DNA of 64,000 nucleotides, taken from IMG/VR virus record IMGVR_UViG_3300031088_000796, positions 44 to 64,043 of that record; one strand, written 5' to 3'. The stretch comes from a virus. Both the position numbers and the translations under genes were made by a program. The stretch's first letter is position 1, and each line of letters starts with the position of its first letter. The notes beneath the pieces are model-generated. The model had not been told where the DNA came from, did not search any database, and saw only the letters and a program-made list of their open reading frames with translations. This document shows, piece by piece, positions 5,414-52,489 of the stretch.

Positions 5414-7090
5414 ATGATGCTCAAGCGAACACTCACCCATTTCCATTTTTGCTGCGGCGTCGGTGGTGGAGCCAAAGGCTTCAACCGTGCAAAGCCCGTC
5501 GTCGGTAACGTTCAGGCTGAATGGGAGTGCATCGGCGGCGTTGATGTAGACCCTGCCGGACTGCGTGACTTCGAACGGTTAAGCGGTGTGAAAGGCACCT
5601 TGCTTGACTTGTTCACCCGTGATCAATACATCCGCTTCCATGGCAAGGAACCTCCGATGGGTTGGCGCGAGGCGACCCCTGAAGATATTCGCCGCGCAGC
5701 AGGCGGACGCAGACCAGACGCGGTATTCATCAGCAGTCCATGCAAGGGCGCGTCGGGTTTATTGTCCGAGTCGATGAGCCTGACACCGAAGTACCAGGCC
5801 CTAAACGAACTGACGCTGCGGTGCGTCTGGCTGATGTGCGAAGCCTGGAAGGATGACCCGGTATCGCTGATTGTTTTCGAGAACGTACCGCGCCTGGCTA
5901 CCCGTGGCCGACACCTGCTGGACCAAATCAACAAGCTGTTGAACCACTACGGTTACGCGGTTGCGGAAACCACGCACGACTGTGGCGTCATCGGTGGCCT
6001 GGCGCAAAGCCGCAAGCGCTTTCTGCTGGTGGCCCGCCACATCGAGAAGGTGCCGCCATTCTTGTATGAACCTGAGAAAAAGACCCTCAAGTCTGTCGGA
6101 TCAATCCTTGGCCGAATGCCTATGGCTGGTGATGTTGTAGCCGCTGGCCCTATGCACCGGGTTCCTGCACTGCAATGGAAAACATGGGTGCGCTTGGCCC
6201 TGGTAGAAGCCGGTAAGGACTGGCGATGCCTGAATGATTTAGCGATCGAGGATGGCTACTTGCGCGACCTGGTCATTGTGCCGCGCTACCACGACAACGT
6301 GCTGGGTGTAACAGCGTGGGACGACACGGCAGGAGTAGTTGCCGGTGCGAGCAGGCCCATGAACGGCAAATACTCGGTAGCAGACCCACGGGCCAAGGCT
6401 GGAGCATTGCAATACCAGCAGTACGGCGTCCGCCGCTGGGATGAAACAAGCGGCGCGGTGATTGGCGTCAAATCGCCCGGACAAGGGACATTCAGCGTTG
6501 CGGATCCCCGCGACCCCGGCATTGGGCACGCCAAGTACAACGTGGCCCAGTGGGATGGGATATCGCGCACGGTGATATCCGGTAGTACCACGGGCCAGGG
6601 TGCTTTCGCCGTCCAAGACCCGCGCCCAGGCATGAAACGCACCAAGGGCGATGCCTACCTCACTGCCGGGCACTACGGTATTACCGCCTGGAACGATCAG
6701 TGCGGCGCCGTTTCCGCCAGCGCTCGCCAGGACAATGGCCGGTGGTCTGTCGCAGATCCGCGCATACCAGAAGCCAATGAGCGCCTTACCTGCGTCATTG
6801 AAAGCCTCGACGGCACCTGGCACCGCCCCTTCACCACCTTGGAGCTGGCCGCACTGCAAAGCTTGGTCGAGCCCGAAGAGCTGTTTGAACTGGACGGCCT
6901 GAGCGACCAAGCCTGGCGCGAGCGGATCGGAAATGCAGTTCCACCAGCCGCTGCCGAAGCAATAGCCCATGTGATGGGCACCACCCTGCTGCTGGCCGAG
7001 GCCGGTGAAACCTTCATGCTCAACAGTATGCCGATTTGGGTTCAGCCTGTGGCAGTCGGCCTGAGCGTGTCGCAACGGGTGCAGTCATGA
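5414..7090 (+). CDS. C5 cytosine DNA methyltransferase
   Basis: Motif I FCCGVGGG, motif IV SPC, motif VI ENV, motif VIII QSRKRF, motif X RIGNAVPP. Confidence 0.9.
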   Translation: MMLKRTLTHFHFCCGVGGGAKGFNRAKPVVGNVQAEWECIGGVDVDPAGLRDFERLSGVKGTLLDLFTRDQYIRFHGKEPPMGWREATPEDIRRAAGGRRPDAVFISSPCKGASGLLSESMSLTPKYQALNELTLRCVWLMCEAWKDDPVSLIVFENVPRLATRGRHLLDQINKLLNHYGYAVAETTHDCGVIGGLAQSRKRFLLVARHIEKVPPFLYEPEKKTLKSVGSILGRMPMAGDVVAAGPMHRVPALQWKTWVRLALVEAGKDWRCLNDLAIEDGYLRDLVIVPRYHDNVLGVTAWDDTAGVVAGASRPMNGKYSVADPRAKAGALQYQQYGVRRWDETSGAVIGVKSPGQGTFSVADPRDPGIGHAKYNVAQWDGISRTVISGSTTGQGAFAVQDPRPGMKRTKGDAYLTAGHYGITAWNDQCGAVSASARQDNGRWSVADPRIPEANERLTCVIESLDGTWHRPFTTLELAALQSLVEPEELFELDGLSDQAWRERIGNAVPPAAAEAIAHVMGTTLLLAEAGETFMLNSMPIWVQPVAVGLSVSQRVQS

Positions 7091-15839: not shown

Positions 15840-15955
15840 AAAGTTGGCAATCCGTCCATCGACGTGTGCAAACCTTTTGGGCATTCCGCGCTTGCAGTTG
15901 GTACGGGGATACAATTTAATGTCGCCACTGACATCGTGGTCAAAGGTGGCGTGCC

Positions 15956-18201: not shown

Positions 18202-18488
18202 CGCTCAACGCCGATCGCGAACCAACCCCCGACAACATCCGCCAAGCCAGGAAGAACCGTGGCCTGAGCGAGAGCGCAGCCGGTGAACTGATCTACGTGA
18301 GCCGCGAGTCGTGGCGCCTGTACGAAAAGGGCACCACCAAAATCAAGCTGGGGCTGTGGGAGCTGTTCCTGTTCAAAACAGGGCAAATCTGGCTCAAGCC
18401 TGTTGTGGAACCGCGACCCAAGGCCAAGCGGCGTGGGCGCGTCGAAAACTTAAGGCCGTTCCGGGCCAACTCGTTAGGAGCTGACTGA
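18198..18488 (+). CDS. small HTH protein
   Basis: PTPDNIRQARKNRGLSESAAGELIYVSRESWRLYEKG...WELF. Confidence 0.75.
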   Translation: MTLNADREPTPDNIRQARKNRGLSESAAGELIYVSRESWRLYEKGTTKIKLGLWELFLFKTGQIWLKPVVEPRPKAKRRGRVENLRPFRANSLGAD

Positions 18489-19078
18489 TGCAGAACAAAC
18501 CGAAACCGAAAGGGCAGGCGCACGACGACGACCTACTGCTGGCCAGCAACGTGTCAGCGTTCAAACAGTGGCTGATCGCCCAGGACATTGCCGTGCAGGA
18601 ACCCGTGGTGGCTCACAAGGCGCGCGGAGTGCATTACTGGGTAGATATCCCTGGTTGCAAGCCTGTATCAGTCCAGGAGGGCACTGCACGCAAAGCCCGG
18701 TACGCACAAACGCACTACCGCCTGCGCCCGTTGCTGAACAGCTTCCTTACTTCGCCCATGGCCAGTGCCATCAAGGCAATCGTACGCACGAAGACGCCAA
18801 GCCCGGTAATGACGGTAGTTGACCGCAAGGTTCAGCCAGTCGCGGCGGCCAACTCCGATGCCTCGACTGGGGCAGATATCGCGTCCAACAATCCTGAGGC
18901 CGTCCAACCGACTGGCAAGGCCATACACGTCAAGCCCCTGGACAAGTTCCTGGTGGACCTGCGCGATGACTTCGCCATCAGCTGCCCACTGAAGGTCAGG
19001 GGCGATGAAAGCATGGCCTCCTTTGCTAATCGCCGCTGGGAGTACGCCCAAGCAATGCTAGACGCGCGCCCACAGTAG
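18488..19078 (+). CDS. hypothetical phage protein
   Basis: Coupled ORF with C-terminal LRDDFA...YAQAMLDAR motif. Confidence 0.6.
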   Translation: MQNKPKPKGQAHDDDLLLASNVSAFKQWLIAQDIAVQEPVVAHKARGVHYWVDIPGCKPVSVQEGTARKARYAQTHYRLRPLLNSFLTSPMASAIKAIVRTKTPSPVMTVVDRKVQPVAAANSDASTGADIASNNPEAVQPTGKAIHVKPLDKFLVDLRDDFAISCPLKVRGDESMASFANRRWEYAQAMLDARPQ

Positions 19079-19312: not shown

Positions 19313-19897
19313 ATGACCTTGTTCTATCGCCGCGAAGACTTTGAACGCGCTTGTCGACACGCGGGTATCAGTGACCTGGCCTTTAGCGCCGAAACAGGTG
19401 AGTACCAGAACCCCCACACACATAAGGCATACCTGGTGTGGGAATCGCTGGCGCAGACCAAGCAGGCCAGCGCCGGGCCAAAAGTGTGGCTGACGCGCCG
19501 CAGGGGTAAGGATCAAGGCATTGCGGTCACTCGACCCTATTCCACCACCACGCCTTCCGAGTGGGCGCGCATGGACGCCATGGGCTGGGAACAACCGTTG
19601 GCGCTCTGGCCAGCGATGCCGATTACCAGCGCCAGTGAAAACGCTGTCCTGGTCGAGCGTCAACGGCAGAAGTCGGTCAAGGGCTACTCCCCTGAACTCG
19701 ACCTGCGATATGGCAACGACGAGCTACTACGCGCGGCAGCGGCCTATGCACTGCAATGGTTGGCGCCGAGCCAGGCACGGGCGATCTGGCCGTGGCCGGA
19801 CTCCCCCATGAAAAGCGTGTCACGCCTGAGGGCGATCGAGAAGGCTGGTGCGCTGCTGATCGCCGATCACGAGCGCGTGATGGCGGTGGACGCATGA
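19313..19897 (+). CDS. conserved phage hypothetical protein
   Basis: C-terminal ERQRQ...EL..AAAAYA...WPW...KAGALLIAD.ER domain. Confidence 0.65.
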   Translation: MTLFYRREDFERACRHAGISDLAFSAETGEYQNPHTHKAYLVWESLAQTKQASAGPKVWLTRRRGKDQGIAVTRPYSTTTPSEWARMDAMGWEQPLALWPAMPITSASENAVLVERQRQKSVKGYSPELDLRYGNDELLRAAAAYALQWLAPSQARAIWPWPDSPMKSVSRLRAIEKAGALLIADHERVMAVDA

Positions 19898-20559
19898 AAA
19901 CCAAAGCACCCGTTGTAATCGACTTGGCCCAACTACAGGCGCGCCTCCACACAAAGCGGGCAGATCCAGTTTTTCACGATGATCCGCGCTACGCAGAGTT
20001 TCGCGAGCGTTACGGCGCCGATCTTTGCGCATTCGCTGAAGAGGTGTTTGGCGTAGAGCTGGATCCTGAAACGCGCAAGGCCTACCTCAATGCAAGTAAG
20101 CCTGGTACCCGCATGGTGCTGTCCGATGTTCTCGACATGCGTGAGGCCCGGTTCCCACCGGTTGCGCTGTGGGCAATGCTCTTTCATCCGTGCAATGAAG
20201 TGGTGGTTATTGCGCCGAGGAATGAACTGCACCGATGCCACTGGCGCGCCTACATGAAGGTTGCGAAAGGCGCCCATGGCTGGCTTGGGAAGCACCTGCG
20301 CATTACACAGTCGGGTATTCGAACAGAGGCTGGTTACCTGGGGCCGAGAATTTCGTTCAGGACCGCGACCAACCATTCACCGGAAAACCTGGCGGGCATG
20401 TCCGGTCATCAAATGTTGTTTCTGGTCGAGGGTGCAGCGCGGATCGGCGACCAATGCATTCAGGTACTTCACGCCAGCCTTCGAGAGCCAATGGTTTCCG
20501 AGGTGCTGGCGCTTTCGTGCTTCACAGTCGTGCAAACCAGCCCGCAGGTCGCGCACTAA
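19894..20559 (+). CDS. Degenerate paralogue of the terminase ATPase domain
   Basis: Collinear with the TerL N-terminus (DPRY..F.ERY..DL..FA.E; IAP; KG.H.W; RTA...SPENLAG..G) but Walker A and B are replaced. Confidence 0.75.
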   Translation: MKTKAPVVIDLAQLQARLHTKRADPVFHDDPRYAEFRERYGADLCAFAEEVFGVELDPETRKAYLNASKPGTRMVLSDVLDMREARFPPVALWAMLFHPCNEVVVIAPRNELHRCHWRAYMKVAKGAHGWLGKHLRITQSGIRTEAGYLGPRISFRTATNHSPENLAGMSGHQMLFLVEGAARIGDQCIQVLHASLREPMVSEVLALSCFTVVQTSPQVAH

Positions 20560-20614
20560 CGCACTTTAGAGTTATGGGGCCGGTCCACCGGCCCTTTTTG
20601 TGTTTAGGGAACCC

Positions 20615-22165
20615 ATGGCCAAGCCAAAGCCCAAAAGTCTGCGCCTAGAATCAGACCCGAGGTGGCCAGCTTTCATCGAACGTTACGCCTTCGACCTGTA
20701 CAAGTTCGCCGTCGAAGCGTGCCTGATGGATGTCACCCCGCAGCAGAAAGAACTCTTCGACGAGACGTCCGTTTTTGGCTGTCGCGTCTCGGTGTCGTCT
20801 GGCCACGGTACCGGCAAGACTCGCGGCTTTGGTGTGACCTGCCTGTGGCACCTGCTCAGTTACCTGCACTCAAACACCTATGTGACGGCGCCCAAGCTCA
20901 AGACCGTACGGGAGGGCGTGTGGAAAGAGATCACCACGATTCTGGCGCAAATCCGTAAGGGGCCCCACGCTTGGATCGCTGACTACGTAGTGATTCAGGC
21001 CGAGAAGGTCTATGTAGTCGGTCACAGCGCCACCTGGTACGTCACCACACGCACCGCCCCGCGCGGCTCACCTGAAAATCTGGCCGGTACCCACGGCGAG
21101 TACCTGTTGTGGCTGGCGGACGAAGCGTCAGGCATTCCAGACGAAAACTTTGGCGTGATCGGTGGCGCCCTTACAGATGACCGCAACCGCTTCGTCATGG
21201 CCAGCCAGCCAACCCGATCCAGCGGCTTCTTTTGGGATACGCATCACGGGCAGTCGATCAAACGGGGCGGGCCTTGGGTACCGCTGGTATTCAACTCGGA
21301 AGAGAGCCCAATTGTCTCCCTCAAGTTCATCAGGGAGAAGCGCCAGCAGTACGGCGGTGTCGGCGAAGCGGAGTATCAAATCAAGGTGAAGGGGATGTTC
21401 CCTACCAACTTGAGCAAATACCTGCTGAACACGACGCTGCTTGAGCGCGCTATTGCGGCTCAAAGTCCAATCCTGCCAGGTGAAGAGTGGGGCCACCTCA
21501 TCGTTGTCGACGTCGCCGCTGGCGTTGGGCGTGACAAGACTGTGGCCACGCACATGCGCGTAAGCGGTAAAGGCGATCGGATGCTCAACGAGCGGCGCCG
21601 GAAAGTTGAAGTGGTCGACATCCCGATCTATAGCTCCACCGAGGACTGGACGCCGCTGGCGGTCAAGTTGCGCGACTACGCCATGCGCTTGCCCAACGTC
21701 ACCATAGTGATCGACGTAAGCGCCATGGGCGTGCAGTTCATGAAGCGTCTCCAGGAGCTGCAAGAGGGCAGCATGATCATCCAGGGCGTGCAGTGGGGCG
21801 CTCGTCCGCACTCAAACGAATACCGCAAGCGATTCCTTAACCAGAGGGCGCAATGCACCGTGCACGCCACAGAGGCGATCAAAGACGGCGTGGTCAAGCT
21901 GGCGAAGAAGCATCAGCGCGACCTGATCGACCAAGGCTCACGCCTGCCGTACTCCTTCGACGATCAGGGGCGCTACAAGATCGCCACCAAGGAAAGCATG
22001 GAAGCCGACGGGCTTTCATCCCCGGACCTTTTTGACACCATCTGCATGGCGTTTCTTGAGGACGTCAATTACATCGCGTGCAGCGAGCAGAGCGCGATGG
22101 TGAAGACATCTCGCGCTGAAGCGACCCTGAAAAAAGCCATGTCCAGATTTGATAACGTCGCATAA
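20615..22165 (+). CDS. terL: Terminase large subunit (PacB-like)
   Basis: Walker A SGHGTGKT, Walker B LWLADEA, coupling motif SQP, nuclease VDVAAG / IDVSAMG / SPDLFD. Confidence 0.92.
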   Translation: MAKPKPKSLRLESDPRWPAFIERYAFDLYKFAVEACLMDVTPQQKELFDETSVFGCRVSVSSGHGTGKTRGFGVTCLWHLLSYLHSNTYVTAPKLKTVREGVWKEITTILAQIRKGPHAWIADYVVIQAEKVYVVGHSATWYVTTRTAPRGSPENLAGTHGEYLLWLADEASGIPDENFGVIGGALTDDRNRFVMASQPTRSSGFFWDTHHGQSIKRGGPWVPLVFNSEESPIVSLKFIREKRQQYGGVGEAEYQIKVKGMFPTNLSKYLLNTTLLERAIAAQSPILPGEEWGHLIVVDVAAGVGRDKTVATHMRVSGKGDRMLNERRRKVEVVDIPIYSSTEDWTPLAVKLRDYAMRLPNVTIVIDVSAMGVQFMKRLQELQEGSMIIQGVQWGARPHSNEYRKRFLNQRAQCTVHATEAIKDGVVKLAKKHQRDLIDQGSRLPYSFDDQGRYKIATKESMEADGLSSPDLFDTICMAFLEDVNYIACSEQSAMVKTSRAEATLKKAMSRFDNVA

Positions 22166-22289
22166 ATATAGTTTTTTATGTATTAATCTGTATATTCGGA
22201 CATGGCCGAACAATTAAACCCCGCAATTCTGGCCATAACCATCGGTTAAGCGCAAATAGAATGTACGGGGATCGTTTGAGGGGCTTGGT

Positions 22290-22655
22290 ATGGAACTGCG
22301 TCGTTACACAAAGAACTATCACGAGAAACCAGAGACGGTGAGCGCCTACGCGTTCGTTGCCTTTTGGGCGGATGACAAATACATCCATGGCCTGGACCGA
22401 GAGGGCGAGGTTTGGCTACTGAAGGGTGGTCACACGCTCAAAGAGATCGAGGCCAACACGGCGGGGCTTGCCCGGATTCACCGACGCGCCATCATTCGAC
22501 TGGACGCCATTGCCCACTTGGTAACGCGAACCCCGCCAGGTGGGAGTTTTAGCGCTTACTGCATGGTCGGCGGCGAAGAATTCAAGGTCTCCCGCAAGTG
22601 CAGGCCAACCATTCAGGCGCTACATGCCGCCCACGTTTCAAAGGGGGCCGCATGA
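22290..22655 (+). CDS. Stand-alone LytTR DNA-binding domain protein
   Basis: AFWADDKY...TLKEIE...RIHRRAII...FKVSRK; no receiver domain. Confidence 0.8.
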   Translation: MELRRYTKNYHEKPETVSAYAFVAFWADDKYIHGLDREGEVWLLKGGHTLKEIEANTAGLARIHRRAIIRLDAIAHLVTRTPPGGSFSAYCMVGGEEFKVSRKCRPTIQALHAAHVSKGAA

Positions 22656-23503
22656 CACACAGCCGACACGAAGAGAATTTGGCCTACCTGGCTAGGATGG
22701 GGCGCCTGAGCAAGACCAAGAAGGCCAACGAGCGCGATGGGTACACCAGCTTTTATGAGAAGAAAGGCCGCCCGGCTGGCGTTTCGTTGAAGCCAACCGA
22801 CGTTCCGTCGCTGGTGGCTACAGCCCTGTCCAGCGGTGGCCCGATCAAAACCGGTGAAGCCTTTGAGCACCTGTTATCGGTGGTGTGTGACAGTTCCCGG
22901 TTCTATGCCTACCACTTCATCATCGCGGCTTCACGCGGTACCGGTGGATGCCGAGCGATTCTATTGAGCGCCCGCACGCTGAATGGCCCCTGCCAGTCCC
23001 GCGCAGCAACCTTGGCCTACGCCACGAAACTGGTTGAGTATGCTGGTGCGTTGGGTTCGCCTCGGGTGATGATCGACGAGACGTCACATTGTTGCTTCCT
23101 GGCCCAGGCACTTAACCATGGCGTGCCCAACAACCTGGTATGGGCGGACGCGCGCGTGCAGTGGCCACCTACCGATGAGGCGTTAAGGACACAGTACCTG
23201 GACAACTATGCCTTGGGGTTTGACCGCTACCGACAGGCGCTGGCCACCAACTCGGTGAAGCTCCCCGAAATGGATTTGCTGGCAGACCAGGTAAAGGCCA
23301 TGGCACCACGGTTGGATGCAGAAGGGCGGATGACCCTCAACAGCCCTGGCGACAAGATGGAGCGTGAGCTGAACGCCCTATGCCTGCTGTACCTGGACGT
23401 GGCAAGCGCTCATCTGATGGTGCCAGGCTCGCGGGTTGAGCCTGGCCAGGCATTCGCGCGGCCTCCCGGAGACCGGTATTCAGCAAGACTTGACCATGTT
23501 TGA
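22652..23503 (+). CDS. Degenerate paralogue of the terminase nuclease domain
   Basis: KLVEYA..LG...VMIDE, VQWP, YLDNYA, VKLP...L.DQ...LDAEGR, NALCLLYLD are collinear with the TerL C-terminus. Confidence 0.6.
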   Translation: MTHSRHEENLAYLARMGRLSKTKKANERDGYTSFYEKKGRPAGVSLKPTDVPSLVATALSSGGPIKTGEAFEHLLSVVCDSSRFYAYHFIIAASRGTGGCRAILLSARTLNGPCQSRAATLAYATKLVEYAGALGSPRVMIDETSHCCFLAQALNHGVPNNLVWADARVQWPPTDEALRTQYLDNYALGFDRYRQALATNSVKLPEMDLLADQVKAMAPRLDAEGRMTLNSPGDKMERELNALCLLYLDVASAHLMVPGSRVEPGQAFARPPGDRYSARLDHV

Positions 23504-23557
23504 TAACAGTTATTAAGTCAGCTATTCTGAATGCACGGTTATCTGGAGATAAAAAAC

Positions 23558-23815
23558 ATGATTAGTGCCGATCTTGGCAAGTCGCTTGAAAACTATGTGA
23601 CGCAACTCACCGAGTCCGGTCGCTACGGCTCGAAAAGCGAAGTCCTGCGTGAAGGTGTACGGTTGGTCCAGGATCGTGAAACCCGCCTGGCGGCTTTGGA
23701 CGCCTCAATCGCTCGCGGCCTGGGCGATATCGAAGCGGGCCGCACCAAGCCTGCGGCAGAGGTCTTTGACCGACTGGCAGCAAGATACGAGGCGATGGTT
23801 GATAAGCCCGAATGA
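23558..23815 (+). CDS. parD: ParD-family antitoxin
   Basis: SGRYGSKSEVLREGVRL...LAALDASIARGL.D..AGR. Confidence 0.9.
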   Translation: MISADLGKSLENYVTQLTESGRYGSKSEVLREGVRLVQDRETRLAALDASIARGLGDIEAGRTKPAAEVFDRLAARYEAMVDKPE

Positions 23816-24102
23816 TCGTCCACATCACAGATGAAGCTGTAGGCGATCTTGAGCAAATCGGCGACTACATCGCCCAGGACAATCCACGCCGTGCGTTGTC
23901 GTTCGTCCTTGAGCTGCGTGACAAGTGCCTGAGCTTGGCCAGCACCTACCAATCCTTCCCCCTCATTGCCCGCTACGGCCTACGCCGCAGGATCCATGGC
24001 AATTATGCGATCTTCTACCAGGTGGAAGCTGATCGCGTTGTTGTCGTGCACGTCCTTCATGGTGCGATGGATCACGCGTCGATCTTTCTCGACTCTGAAT
24101 AA
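23812..24102 (+). CDS. parE: ParE/RelE-family toxin
   Basis: ITDEAVGDLEQIGDYIAQDNP.RA..F...YAIFY...VHVLHG; ATGA-coupled to the antitoxin. Confidence 0.9.
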   Translation: MIVHITDEAVGDLEQIGDYIAQDNPRRALSFVLELRDKCLSLASTYQSFPLIARYGLRRRIHGNYAIFYQVEADRVVVVHVLHGAMDHASIFLDSE

Positions 24103-24119
24103 GCCCCACTGCGCTGTCT

Positions 24120-24190
24120 AATGGCTCAAAAGGATGGTTCTTTTATAGGTGGCTCATTTAAGTTAGCCATTCTCTAAATGAGCCAACCCT
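24120..24190. promoter_or_regulatory. Candidate res site
   Basis: Inverted repeat TGGCTCATTTA (24150-24160) / TAAATGAGCCA (24175-24185), extra TGGCTCA at 24122, directly upstream of the resolvase. Confidence 0.6.
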
Positions 24191-24232
24191 GATATGGTTG
24201 GGTCTTTAGGGTATACCCAAAGGAGCCAGGCT

Positions 24233-24889
24233 ATGACCCCCACCAACGTTGCGCGGGTTTATCTGCGTGTCAGCACCGAAGGCCAGGACTTGCAGCGACA
24301 GGAAGCGATAATCGGCGACGCACGAAACTCGGGCTATTACGTGGCGGCGGTCTATCGTGAAAAAGCGTCAGGCGCACGCCCCGACCGTCCCGAACTGCTG
24401 CGCATGATCGAGGATCTACAACCGGGCGAAGTTGTCATTGCGGAAAAGATTGACCGCATCAGCCGTCTGCCGTTGGCGGAAGCGGAAAAGCTCGTTGAGA
24501 CAATTCGGGCCAAAGGCGCGCGTCTGGCTGTACCGGGTATCGTTGACCTGTCTGAGTTGGCAGAAGCGTCGAGTGGGGTCGCCAAGGTGGTTATACAGAG
24601 CGTGCAGGAGATGCTGTTGCGCGTGGCCCTGCAAATGGCGCGCGATGATTTTGAGGATCGCCGTGAGCGGCAGCGTCAGGGCATCGACCTGGCCAAGGGC
24701 GCAGGGCGCTACCTTGGACGTAAGCCAGACACAAAAATGCACGAGCGCGTTATTGCGCATAAGCGTAACGGTACCAGCATTGCGGAAACCGCAAGACTGG
24801 CCGACTGTAGCGTCAGCCAGGTTAAGCGCATCTGGGCCCAGTACACGGCCAACACAAGTTCCGCTCCGCAACTCCTCACACACCAATAG
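24233..24889 (+). CDS. Small serine recombinase (resolvase)
   Basis: YLRVST..QDLQRQ, EKASG, EKIDRISR, RRERQRQGI..AK..GRYLGRK, C-terminal HTH. Confidence 0.92.
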   Translation: MTPTNVARVYLRVSTEGQDLQRQEAIIGDARNSGYYVAAVYREKASGARPDRPELLRMIEDLQPGEVVIAEKIDRISRLPLAEAEKLVETIRAKGARLAVPGIVDLSELAEASSGVAKVVIQSVQEMLLRVALQMARDDFEDRRERQRQGIDLAKGAGRYLGRKPDTKMHERVIAHKRNGTSIAETARLADCSVSQVKRIWAQYTANTSSAPQLLTHQ

Positions 24890-24905
24890 GAAAGGAACCC
24901 CGGCT

Positions 24906-25148
24906 ATGCCGACCTATACCGACCAAGAAAAAACGCTGTACCTGAATCAAGCCCGGCGCAAGGTGCTGGCCATCGCCAAGGCGAATCGGAAGTACATCGA
25001 CCGCACCGAGGAACATGCCCGCGCCTATGCCGAGGCGCTGTATGACGTGGCCGCCATCACCGAAACAGAGCGCTTGACGCTGTTGGATGATGCCCGCGAG
25101 GCCGCCGAAGCCCGCGTGCGTGAATTCAGAGCCGCCGAACAGGCCTAA
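24906..25148 (+). CDS. small helical protein, array gene 1
   Basis: ATG after the repeat leader; HARAYAEALYDVAAITETE. Confidence 0.7.
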   Translation: MPTYTDQEKTLYLNQARRKVLAIAKANRKYIDRTEEHARAYAEALYDVAAITETERLTLLDDAREAAEARVREFRAAEQA

Positions 25149-25169
25149 CCGAAAGGAACCCCCGCCGTC

Positions 25170-25385
25170 ATGAGCAAATCCCCGATTCCTCGACCGGCGC
25201 CGCTGGCCGAACTTGAGCCTGGCGAGGACCTGGCCGCGTTGCGCCTGGATGCCGAGCGGTGGCGGTGGCTGCGTGAGCGGGCTGTGCGGATCCAGGGGAG
25301 CTACGTGTGGTATCAGGGTATCTATCTGGACCTGCGGGCCGATATCGGATTGGGCCATGTCCGGGAAGACAGCGAGCCACAATGA
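25170..25385 (+). CDS. small hypothetical protein, array gene 2
   Basis: ATG after the repeat leader; DAERWRWLRERA motif. Confidence 0.7.
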   Translation: MSKSPIPRPAPLAELEPGEDLAALRLDAERWRWLRERAVRIQGSYVWYQGIYLDLRADIGLGHVREDSEPQ

Positions 25386-25431
25386 AGCGCCGCGTTACCA
25401 TCACGTACTTGAACCGAAAGGAACCCCCGCC

Positions 25432-25659
25432 ATGCCGATTGATCCCCAGGCGGCGCCGCTGAATGCCGACCAAACCCGTGACCTGCAAGCGGCTGCCGTT
25501 GAGGCGCTGGCCGTGTTGCGCGACTTGCTGCGTGATCGAGCGACCGGCAATCACTACAGCCGTGTAAATGCCGCGTGCTGGAAGTTGTCGACCGCCCTGG
25601 AACAAGTGGTAGCCGATGACGTGCCGGGGAATGGCGCAAGTCCCGGCGCCGAAGGGTAG
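25432..25659 (+). CDS. small hypothetical protein, array gene 3
   Basis: ATG immediately after the repeat leader. Confidence 0.65.
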   Translation: MPIDPQAAPLNADQTRDLQAAAVEALAVLRDLLRDRATGNHYSRVNAACWKLSTALEQVVADDVPGNGASPGAEG

Positions 25660-25700
25660 GCCGCTGTATTACCAATAACGAACCGAAAGGAACCCCCGCC

Positions 25701-25943
25701 ATGAGTGTCCAAGTGAAAACCGCCAAGCTAGACCGATTCTCCCATGGTGTGCTGTATGCCGCCGCCCAGGTACAGCGTCTGCACGATGAGCCGCAAGTTG
25801 CAGCCGATCTGCTGAAAAACGCCGGGCTCGCCCAGGTCGATTGCAGCAGCTTGGACGAGTACGACAAAGAGTCATTGCGCGAAGTGAACAAGATCCGTGG
25901 AATGGGGCTGACCGGATTGGGCGAAGCTGCCGAGGGCGAGTGA
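25701..25943 (+). CDS. small hypothetical protein, array gene 4
   Basis: ATG immediately after the repeat leader. Confidence 0.7.
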   Translation: MSVQVKTAKLDRFSHGVLYAAAQVQRLHDEPQVAADLLKNAGLAQVDCSSLDEYDKESLREVNKIRGMGLTGLGEAAEGE

Positions 25944-26170
25944 GCCCGCCGCGCTACCAATAACGTGACCTAGGTTAAATCGGGGGGCACAGCCAGGCCG
26001 GCGGCGGTGCCCTTTTCTACCGCCTGGCGCCCCTTTGACTGGATTTATCGCAGTCTGCCCCATCCTCTTCAAAAATAGCTGGTGCGCTACGAAGACTCTC
26101 GGCCCACTATCAAATGGTAGTGGTTCGCGTTATCATTGATGCAAATATATGCACAAATGCATAAATTGCA

Positions 26171-46566: not shown

Positions 46567-46742
46567 TCCGAAGGAAGCCGCGATGGGGTGAGGTGAGATT
46601 GCGGAGTTAAATATGTCGAAAACATTATATTTTTGATGTTTAATCGTTCCCGACTTGTACGGGGATAGTTTATGTCGATCCAAAAACGTCCACAACAACA
46701 CGGCAGGAAATACTCCCAGCTGGGCTGGGCCGGGGGTGCCCG

Positions 46743-52339: not shown

Positions 52340-52489
52340 TCGTATGGTAATCGTAAGCCAGAAATATGCCATATCATCCCCGTACCATGCTGATATGCGC
52401 TGAATACATGCTGGAAGCCCGAACCTTGGCGCTTACGCTCACTGTGATTTATCATAACGACACCAAGTCCACATATCACAGGAGCTACC

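Follow-up and report, generated by a model that had tools for sequence, protein, structure and literature searches.

Why would a phage whose large terminase (TerL) appears intact carry, two genes further on, a second reading frame resembling the nuclease half of that same enzyme? The question is raised by an open reading frame (ORF) located at positions 22652..23503 (+ strand) of a 64,000-nucleotide stretch of viral DNA (positions 44 to 64,043 of IMG/VR record IMGVR_UViG_3300031088_000796), hereafter referred to as the window. No enzyme of tailed phages is more conserved than the large terminase, which is also recognised by several bacterial immune sensors. The element itself is a phage-plasmid-like myovirus encoding portal, baseplate and fibres, and its related records are non-mobilizable Pseudomonas plasmids of 81-95 kb. 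A first-pass annotation, made from the letters of the window alone, had presented the ORF as a 'dead copy' of the nuclease domain of TerL which, together with a second ORF at 19894, would constitute a whole additional terminase split into two inactive halves. Our analysis leaves very little doubt that the product of the ORF, designated P0001, is a catalytically dead, selectively maintained paralogue of this nuclease domain. Its role is a more tentative matter and is weighed further below.

The P0001 gene and its family

The P0001 frame opens with an ATG at 22652, preceded by AAGGGGG, closes with a stop codon at 23501-23503 and codes for 283 amino acids (aa). A word-based search of 5.8 billion proteins brought out nine homologues (264-272 aa, 53-83% identity), all of which share the start Met, so that the ORF proposed in the first-pass annotation is a real gene. 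This assignment further draws on the homology, the fold and the substitution rates described in the next sections. A HMMER search of 1.84 billion cluster representatives yielded about 11 genuine P0001 clusters (at 50% identity), with members of 234-275 aa and identities down to 26%; long matches made of multiple stretches in this search look spurious. With such counts, the family is, as far as sequence databases go, small, narrow and well delimited. The family alignment used throughout comprises 18 members, with identities as low as 26%.

Holders of the family were one PLSDB plasmid (found by tblastn), six IMG/VR contigs and one GTDB species genome (Pseudomonas azerbaijanoccidentalis). Complete plasmids carrying the gene occur in the sequenced isolates P. 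fluorescens DR133 (CP048608) and P. yamanorum (CP058645). No homologue was detectable by tblastn in P1 or in any of 50,697 phage genome records. Likewise, P0001 matched no model of Pfam, PHROGs or NCBIfam, and a sequence search of the PDB with it returned noise only. None of the PADLOC defence families was matched at E≤0.01 by P0001 or by the products of two nearby genes discussed below, the ATPase-like P0003 and a LytTR-like protein.

The protein begins with a basic extension (aa 1-45), which is followed by an RNase H-like core (aa ~48-255; 22793..23416, +) and by a variable, disordered tail. The basic character of the extension is a family trait, the N-terminal 45 aa having an isoelectric point (pI) of 10-12 in 17 of the 18 members. 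In the window, about 16 aa (MVPGSRVEPGQAFARPP) that no homologue has are inserted in frame in the disordered C-terminal tail (23417-23500).

Relationship with the TerL nuclease domain

A relationship between P0001 and the neighbouring TerL was observed with every method of sequence comparison applied. BLASTP aligned residues 53-263 of P0001 with residues 279-507 of TerL (22% identity over 235 columns, E = 2e-4), and a hidden Markov model (HMM) of the 18 members matched the TerL of every related locus (E 1e-7 to 3e-11), HMM positions 55-253 falling on TerL ~289-498. Profile-profile comparison with HHalign, in which the P0001 family was set against a TerL-nuclease profile of 15 domains (42-100% identical to the TerL of the window across the region), gave a probability of 97.6% and an E-value of 4.5e-12 over 190 columns. 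Judged from HHalign and from the three-family alignment described in the next section, the P0001 core is homologous to TerL ~280-487. The collinearity with the RNase H-like domain of TerL that had been noticed at first sight was thus borne out, and all the peptide pairs then quoted in its favour were found aligned in both BLASTP and HHalign. At the N-terminal side, the resemblance ends with the nuclease: P0001 has no counterpart of the N-terminal ASCE (additional strand, catalytic glutamate) ATPase domain, and only the basic extension of about 45 aa precedes its nuclease-like core.

The same relationship emerged at the level of the fold. An AlphaFold2 (AF2) model of P0001, computed from the 18 family sequences only, reached a mean predicted local distance difference test score (pLDDT) of 81.9 and a predicted template modelling score (pTM) of 0.77, with pLDDT values of about 90 or more over residues 41-255. 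It superseded an earlier AF2 model based on nine sequences (pLDDT 51.6), with which Foldseek had pointed weakly to terminases. With the 18-sequence model, the top Foldseek matches in the PDB were all TerL nuclease domains (Sf6 gp2, E217, G20c and HK97, with E 2.5e-4 and probability 1.0, together with D6E and P22). In VIA-align, the first 32 rows consisted of terminase nucleases, with the TerL proteins of E217, Sf6, G20c and RB49 at Z 12-13.8; the E217 nuclease, at the upper end of this range, superposed over 180 residues with Z 13.8 and a root-mean-square deviation of 3.1 Å. Structural neighbours in BFVD, in the AFDB clusters and in the ESM Atlas were also terminases. The RNase H-like fold expected from the first-pass annotation was therefore recovered by profile comparison as well as by structure prediction. 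RuvC (Z 8.2-8.7) scored well below the terminase nucleases, RuvC and poxvirus resolvases together ranging from 7.5 to 8.7. A RuvC-type resolvase is not indicated by these results: RuvC was not the best structural match of P0001, and the conserved acidic set was absent.

A lead towards P1 Mat came from an AFDB cluster named 'Maturation control protein', a weak structural neighbour of P0001 at rank 22. It was rejected, HHalign giving P1 Mat (250 aa) a probability below 1% against the P0001 family, the TerL nuclease, the TerL ATPase and the inserted nuclease-like domain presented below, and BLASTP giving noise.

In a quick maximum-likelihood tree, P0001 and the family of inserted nuclease-like domains branched within the clade of close Pseudomonas TerL proteins (Shimodaira-Hasegawa approximate likelihood-ratio test, SH-aLRT, 99). 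Because both nuclease-like families nest in this clade, the tree traces P0001 back to a duplication that took place within this lineage of Pseudomonas phage-plasmids. The stem of P0001 is very long, and its grouping with the inserted domain (SH-aLRT 92, stem length 2.5) may reflect long-branch attraction; for that reason, a single duplication at the origin of both is not claimed.

Loss of the catalytic site

The fate of the catalytic residues was followed in a joint alignment (MAFFT) of 15 TerL proteins, seven inserted domains and 18 P0001 relatives. The first catalytic residue, D304 in the TerL motif 'VVDVAAG', is an Asp in 15/15 TerL proteins and faces a gap in 18/18 P0001 members, the loop that bears it being deleted. 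In HHalign, 'VVD304VAAGVGRD312' of TerL accordingly stands opposite 'SVV-----CD80' of P0001. This places D80, kept in 17/18 members, opposite D312 of the TerL motif 'GRD', itself an Asp in 15/15. At site II, TerL D372 (15/15) corresponds to P0001 D142, a position that is D or E in 11/18 members only and S, H, N, C or G in the other seven. Further downstream, D476 of the 'SPD' motif (15/15) is deleted throughout the P0001 family (18/18), and site III, TerL D479 (15/15), corresponds to N241, which is unconstrained. The acidic catalytic triad (end of strand 1, end of strand 4 and C-terminal helix) was therefore not conserved among the 18 members. Losses of the first Asp and of the C-terminal PD..D had both been announced in the first-pass annotation and were found as such. 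The route it proposed, VDVAAG becoming IAASRG, was mistaken, since the catalytic loop is deleted rather than mutated and IAASRG belongs to the next hairpin.

Eleven columns are invariant even among members of as little as 26% identity, and all 18 have an acidic residue at position 239. Most of the other invariant residues (H73, H88, R101, Y130 and a 'PI..GE' turn) are common to TerL and can for this reason be regarded as determinants of the fold. From this pattern of residues, P0001 is almost certainly a non-cutting protein.

Selection and distribution

Substitution rates were estimated by the pairwise Nei-Gojobori method among ten loci. Many pairs were saturated at synonymous sites, which makes the closest pair, the window and locus L004 (related loci are given L numbers), the most reliable one: for P0001, it displayed a non-synonymous rate (dN) of 0.098 and a synonymous rate (dS) of 0.741, that is, a dN/dS ratio (omega) of 0.13. 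The median dN/dS of P0001 was 0.22, as compared with 0.08 for TerL, 0.18 for the LytTR-like gene and 0.34 for the ATPase-like gene P0003, the highest in the module. The dN of P0001 was 4-5 times that of TerL. Yet, TerL is unusually slow, with 85-93% identity among relatives, and the 50-60% identity of P0001 resembled that of TerS (62-69%) and of the other module genes; on these percentages, the divergence of P0001 is not exceptionally fast for the module. The frame is uninterrupted in 18 loci as well as in the 18 diverged members of the family. With dN/dS values of 0.13-0.22, P0001 therefore qualifies, from its pattern of substitution, as a pseudoenzyme under purifying selection and not as a decaying pseudogene. 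The expression 'dead copy' used at first sight thus fits the canonical site, which is lost, and does not fit the gene.

A total of 22 related loci was gathered and scored by tblastn and with family HMMs. In each of the 15 carrying loci with enough flanking sequence, including those of members of only 26% identity, the P0001 homologue followed TerL directly or with a single gene in between. With such a regular position, P0001 looks like a core gene of its subclade rather than a patchy accessory.

Other terminase-derived pieces of the module

The ORF at 19894 (19894..20559, +), designated P0003, codes for a 221-aa dead paralogue of the TerL ATPase domain (27% identity and E = 7e-19 in BLASTP; HHalign probability 99.96%). 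Its P-loop is absent from nine out of nine copies. At the Walker B position, where TerL has 'DE', six of the nine copies have 'ED', and those of the window (VEG), L004 and L005 have 'EG'. The view of this ORF as the dead ATPase half of a terminase was thereby confirmed.

The idea that the two halves make up one split pseudo-terminase fared less well. Both dead halves are real; taken together, however, P0003 and P0001 span only TerL ~16-206 and ~280-487, and they do not amount to a whole TerL because the rest of the ATPase domain is missing. Their expected co-occurrence held in part. The ATPase-like copy accompanies P0001 in 11 of the 14 evaluable P0001-bearing loci and is absent from L007/L008 and L016, and it occurs without P0001 in L002 and L022. 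Each half being found without the other, neither needs its counterpart, though they mostly travel together. An obligate second terminase was consequently rejected, on account of this distribution, of a third TerL-nuclease domain present in most relatives, and of the LytTR-like gene being the more regular neighbour of P0001.

This third domain lies in the homologue of orf196, the second gene after TerS, from which it is separated by a helix-turn-helix (HTH) gene. The orf196 homologue reaches 422-448 aa in 11 relatives (e.g. L005:2384-3652, L007:3095-4363 and L001:7477-8772), where it contains an internal nuclease-like insertion 32-37% identical to TerL 268-508 (E down to 1e-34). Its site I is an Arg in 7/7 domains, and its site II is still an Asp; as read from these residues, the insert is inactivated by a different route from that of P0001. 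The orf196 of the window (18488-19078, 196 aa) matches only the flanks of its insert-bearing relatives, the insert being absent from both the window and L016.

Genetic environment of P0001

In the window, TerS (17056) is followed in order by HTH, orf196, orf217, the ATPase-like gene (19894), TerL, the LytTR-like gene (22290), P0001, ParDE and resolvase. TerL (20600..22165, +; likely start Met at 20615, 516 aa) is of the PacB type (phrog_2, phrog_5902) and, by its motifs, is the active copy: Walker A (GHGTGKT), Walker B (LADEA) and the nuclease residues D304, D372 and D479 are all intact. It shares 34.5% identity with P1 PacB across 96% of its length, which makes the label 'P1-like' given in the first-pass annotation a fair one for the terminase. 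A sequence search of the PDB with TerL brought no terminase match.

The gene between TerL and P0001 (22290..22655, +) codes for a small basic protein of 121 aa (pI 8.9-9.9) that is LytTR-like near the threshold of detection: in the window, it scored 21.7 bits with the Pfam LytTR model, for a gathering score of 22.6, and six of ten orthologues matched PF04397 at E≤0.01 (best 9.3e-6). Its stop codon overlaps the P0001 start codon (ATGA), an overlap kept in 16/17 evaluable loci, which suggests that the two genes are translationally coupled. A weaker LytTR-like gene also follows TerL in relatives without P0001 (L002, L003, L020 and L022).

TerL and the LytTR-like gene are separated by an AT-rich spacer of 124 bp (22166..22289, +), conserved in the 13 loci compared. 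Directly 3' of the TerL stop codon, at 22166-22195, all 13 loci display the dyad A(C/T)ATAG-N5-TATGT (ACATAG in the window) together with GTATAT, a pattern that is unique in the window; the spacer then continues with CCCCG...GTACGGGGA ahead of the ribosome site. This organization makes the spacer a probable promoter or leader, and the LytTR-like/P0001 pair may therefore form its own transcription unit. The 9-mer GTACGGGGA, a putative leader or promoter element, occurs four times in the window, for 0.28 copies expected, at 15901, 22263 and 46657 (+) and at 52377 (-). Each copy lies 4-19 nt 5' of a start codon, and one of them precedes the HTH regulator gene ahead of TerS.

Some minor observations concern the same motifs. 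GTACGGGGA precedes the LytTR-like gene in most relatives, three of which display the one-base variant GTCCGGGGA, and it is found six times in the 17-kb L003 locus. A stretch similar to the spacer dyad, TTTTTGATGTTTAATCG, lies before the GTACGGGGA copy at 46657.

On its other side, P0001 is directly followed by a variable cargo hotspot (23531-25960 in the window) that occupies the same position in L004, L005, L016 and L018. Its cargo differs between loci: ParD/ParE and a serine recombinase (resolvase) are present in the window and L004, an HTH gene in L005, an N6/N4 methyltransferase in L016 and DUF4160/DUF2442 in L018. In the more distant relatives L020 and L022, a plasmid replication gene (RPA) was found in the hotspot interval.

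Possible roles of P0001

The core-like distribution in the subclade, the ordinary evolutionary rate and the operon position led us to prefer, tentatively, a role in the packaging process of the phage itself. P0001 would imitate the nuclease domain of TerL without its catalysis and thereby modulate packaging or cleavage. It would act by binding and not by cutting, and could occupy the partners of the nuclease domain, whether cleavage-site DNA, a neighbouring TerL nuclease domain, or the docking surface on the portal or TerS. The timing or the place of terminase cuts during packaging would be adjusted in this way, and the LytTR-like protein together with the basic arm of P0001 could supply DNA targeting.

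Several observations weigh against a non-cutting packaging partner of this kind. At the end of the sheet that once carried the active site, D80 (17/18) and the acidic residue at 239 (18/18) have been retained; there, they may constitute a residual metal site or sustain some non-canonical activity. Relatives with TerL proteins 59-65% identical to that of the window (L002, L003, L020 and L022) have no P0001 homologue, and P0001 is therefore not a universal requirement of this type of terminase. L017 has P0001 without the LytTR-like gene, so that their pairing is not obligatory. Finally, P0001 adjoins a cargo hotspot containing toxin-antitoxin, methylase and recombinase genes, a setting suited to a conflict gene.

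A role in conflict is a possible, if rather unlikely, explanation. Dead TerL domains could act as mimics that absorb or dampen host sensors of the terminase (Avs1-3, Upx), or as dominant-negative poisons of rival PacB-type terminases, leading to superinfection exclusion. Besides the proximity of the hotspot and a dN 4-5 times that of TerL, this explanation draws on the presence of three independently inactivated TerL-derived domains in one module, two of them patchily distributed. The terminase is also a target of immune sensors, some of which bind its nuclease domain: SeAvs3 binds the TerL nuclease domain in its native conformation, and KpAvs2 is activated by some nuclease domains (PMC13601566). 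Moreover, prophages encode blockers of the packaging of other phages, as with TerI/anti-TerI (bioRxiv 10.1101/2025.02.27.640495). Yet, P0001 is fixed in its subclade instead of patchy and evolves no faster than TerS or other module genes, it displays no gene-wide positive selection (omega 0.13-0.22), and it has no PADLOC match. SeAvs3 reportedly reads active-site residues (PMC13601566), precisely those that P0001 does not have, and a mimic able to bind an Avs protein would be expected to trigger the sensor, not to block it. The location of P0001 inside the late morphogenesis region is a further difficulty, expression during lysogeny not being obvious.

A broader version of this explanation, to which we give somewhat less credit still, would make these proteins an undescribed class of terminase-derived conflict effectors. 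PacB-type phage-plasmids would have repeatedly turned their own TerL domains into non-catalytic mimics, serving as sponges or decoys for Avs1-3 and Upx or as blockers of rival packaging that spare the cognate enzyme. Three candidates for such mimics occur in the lineage, namely the ATPase-like gene, the nuclease-like insert with its Asp-to-Arg replacement, and P0001 with its deleted catalytic loop.

Less probable again is a regulatory pair, in which the LytTR-like protein would be the factor recognising GTACGGGGA-marked promoters and P0001 its co-factor or anti-factor, so that expression would be linked to the state of the packaging machinery, on the model of LytTR regulators paired with an inhibitor. 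The ATGA overlap in 16/17 loci, the LytTR-type motifs, the dyad and GTACGGGGA upstream of the pair, and the presence of GTACGGGGA before three other genes of the window, including the HTH regulator gene, are all consistent with such an arrangement. It is opposed by the distribution of the two genes, the LytTR-like gene occurring without P0001 in L002, L003, L020 and L022 and P0001 occurring alone in L017, and by the LytTR match in the window, which falls under the Pfam gathering score. Furthermore, known LytTR inhibitors are membrane proteins, unlike the soluble, RNase H-like P0001.

It is very improbable that P0001 is still an enzyme, i.e. a diverged RNase H-like nuclease with a site rebuilt from D80, D/E142 and D/E239 and acting, for instance, as a packaging aid that clears branches or junctions. 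D80 (17/18 members) occupies the C-terminal end of strand 1, which in TerL is the place of the catalytic Asp, and BLAST pairs it with D304; position 239 is invariably acidic, and RuvC and poxvirus resolvases are among the structural neighbours (Z 7.5-8.7). HHalign and MAFFT, on the other hand, pair D80 with TerL D312 and not with D304, and the terminase nucleases score far above the resolvases. As position 142 is non-acidic in 7/18 members and position 241 is unconstrained, a two-metal site conserved across the family is unlikely.

That P0001 is a functionless remnant of an old partial TerL duplication is scarcely credible: its 22% identity to TerL, its lost catalytic motifs and its lack of any Pfam, PHROGs or NCBIfam match would fit such an origin, but an intact frame in 18 loci, an omega of 0.13-0.22 with dS up to saturation, 11 invariant columns and a conserved start codon and ATGA overlap do not, and the pseudogene reading was rejected on dN/dS and conservation.

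Comparison with known systems

The closest relatives of P0001 in both sequence (HHalign 97.6%) and fold (Z 12-14 to solved TerL nucleases) are the nuclease domains of PacB-type TerL proteins, such as the TerL of the window and P1 PacB. P0001 differs from them in being a standalone protein devoid of ATPase domain, in the deletion of the catalytic loop and of 'SPD', in the non-conservation of the other acidic sites and in the addition of a basic arm. The nearest structural clusters are standalone proteins of about 230-340 aa, made up for the most part of a terminase nuclease fold and labelled 'Terminase_6C / gp17-like C-terminal domain' in AlphaFold DB and the ESM Atlas. These uncharacterised entries are automatically named, and many of them may be gene fragments or split terminases.

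The C-terminal domain (CTD) of phi29 gp16 is an earlier case of a terminase domain that no longer cuts and is retained for binding. According to PMC7672431, this 'vestigial nuclease' has an RNase H-like fold without catalysis and is retained for functional transitions of the packaging motor. Like P0001, it combines a terminase-type nuclease fold with loss of catalysis and retention. It differs in that it still belongs to the polypeptide of the packaging ATPase, phi29 being a phage devoid of any terminase nuclease, and P0001 is encoded by a separate gene beside an intact TerL. The TerI/anti-TerI system of Listeria prophages (bioRxiv 10.1101/2025.02.27.640495) recalls the setting of P0001, as a temperate-phage accessory that is located at a conserved hotspot and acts on terminase or packaging. 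TerI, however, is small and not derived from a terminase, and it has no relation to P0001 in sequence or fold; the likeness is a functional analogy only.

Non-catalytic terminase nuclease folds are thus already known (phi29), and standalone 'Terminase_6C' proteins are already present in databases. In the literature, no paper was found on a conserved paralogue of the nuclease domain that is catalytically dead and encoded next to an intact TerL. Up to three selected dead copies of terminase domains around a working TerL suggest an unstudied layer acting on packaging, which could be a control of the timing of cuts or molecular mimicry in terminase-centred conflicts. If P0001 were a minor packaging accessory only, it would still illustrate cleanly how a pseudoenzyme can evolve out of a viral nuclease. 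It looks testable, with a small family and complete plasmids in sequenced Pseudomonas isolates.

Additional features of the TerL gene

A hairpin scan detected a strong terminator-like GC hairpin followed by a T-run at 20576..20595 (+), just upstream of TerL. This hairpin (GGGGCCGG..CCGGCCC and T-run) lies 4-20 nt 5' of the TerL start and is kept even in L007 (at 5908-5927), which has no ATPase-like gene. Read-through or antitermination may be needed for TerL expression. In addition, inteins are frequent in the TerL genes of the family, where they interrupt the ATPase domain close to the P-loop; they are of the Hint type, some of them with LAGLIDADG, and were observed in L003:9251-11527, L018:3904-6492, P0041, P0054, P0062, P0068 and P0070.

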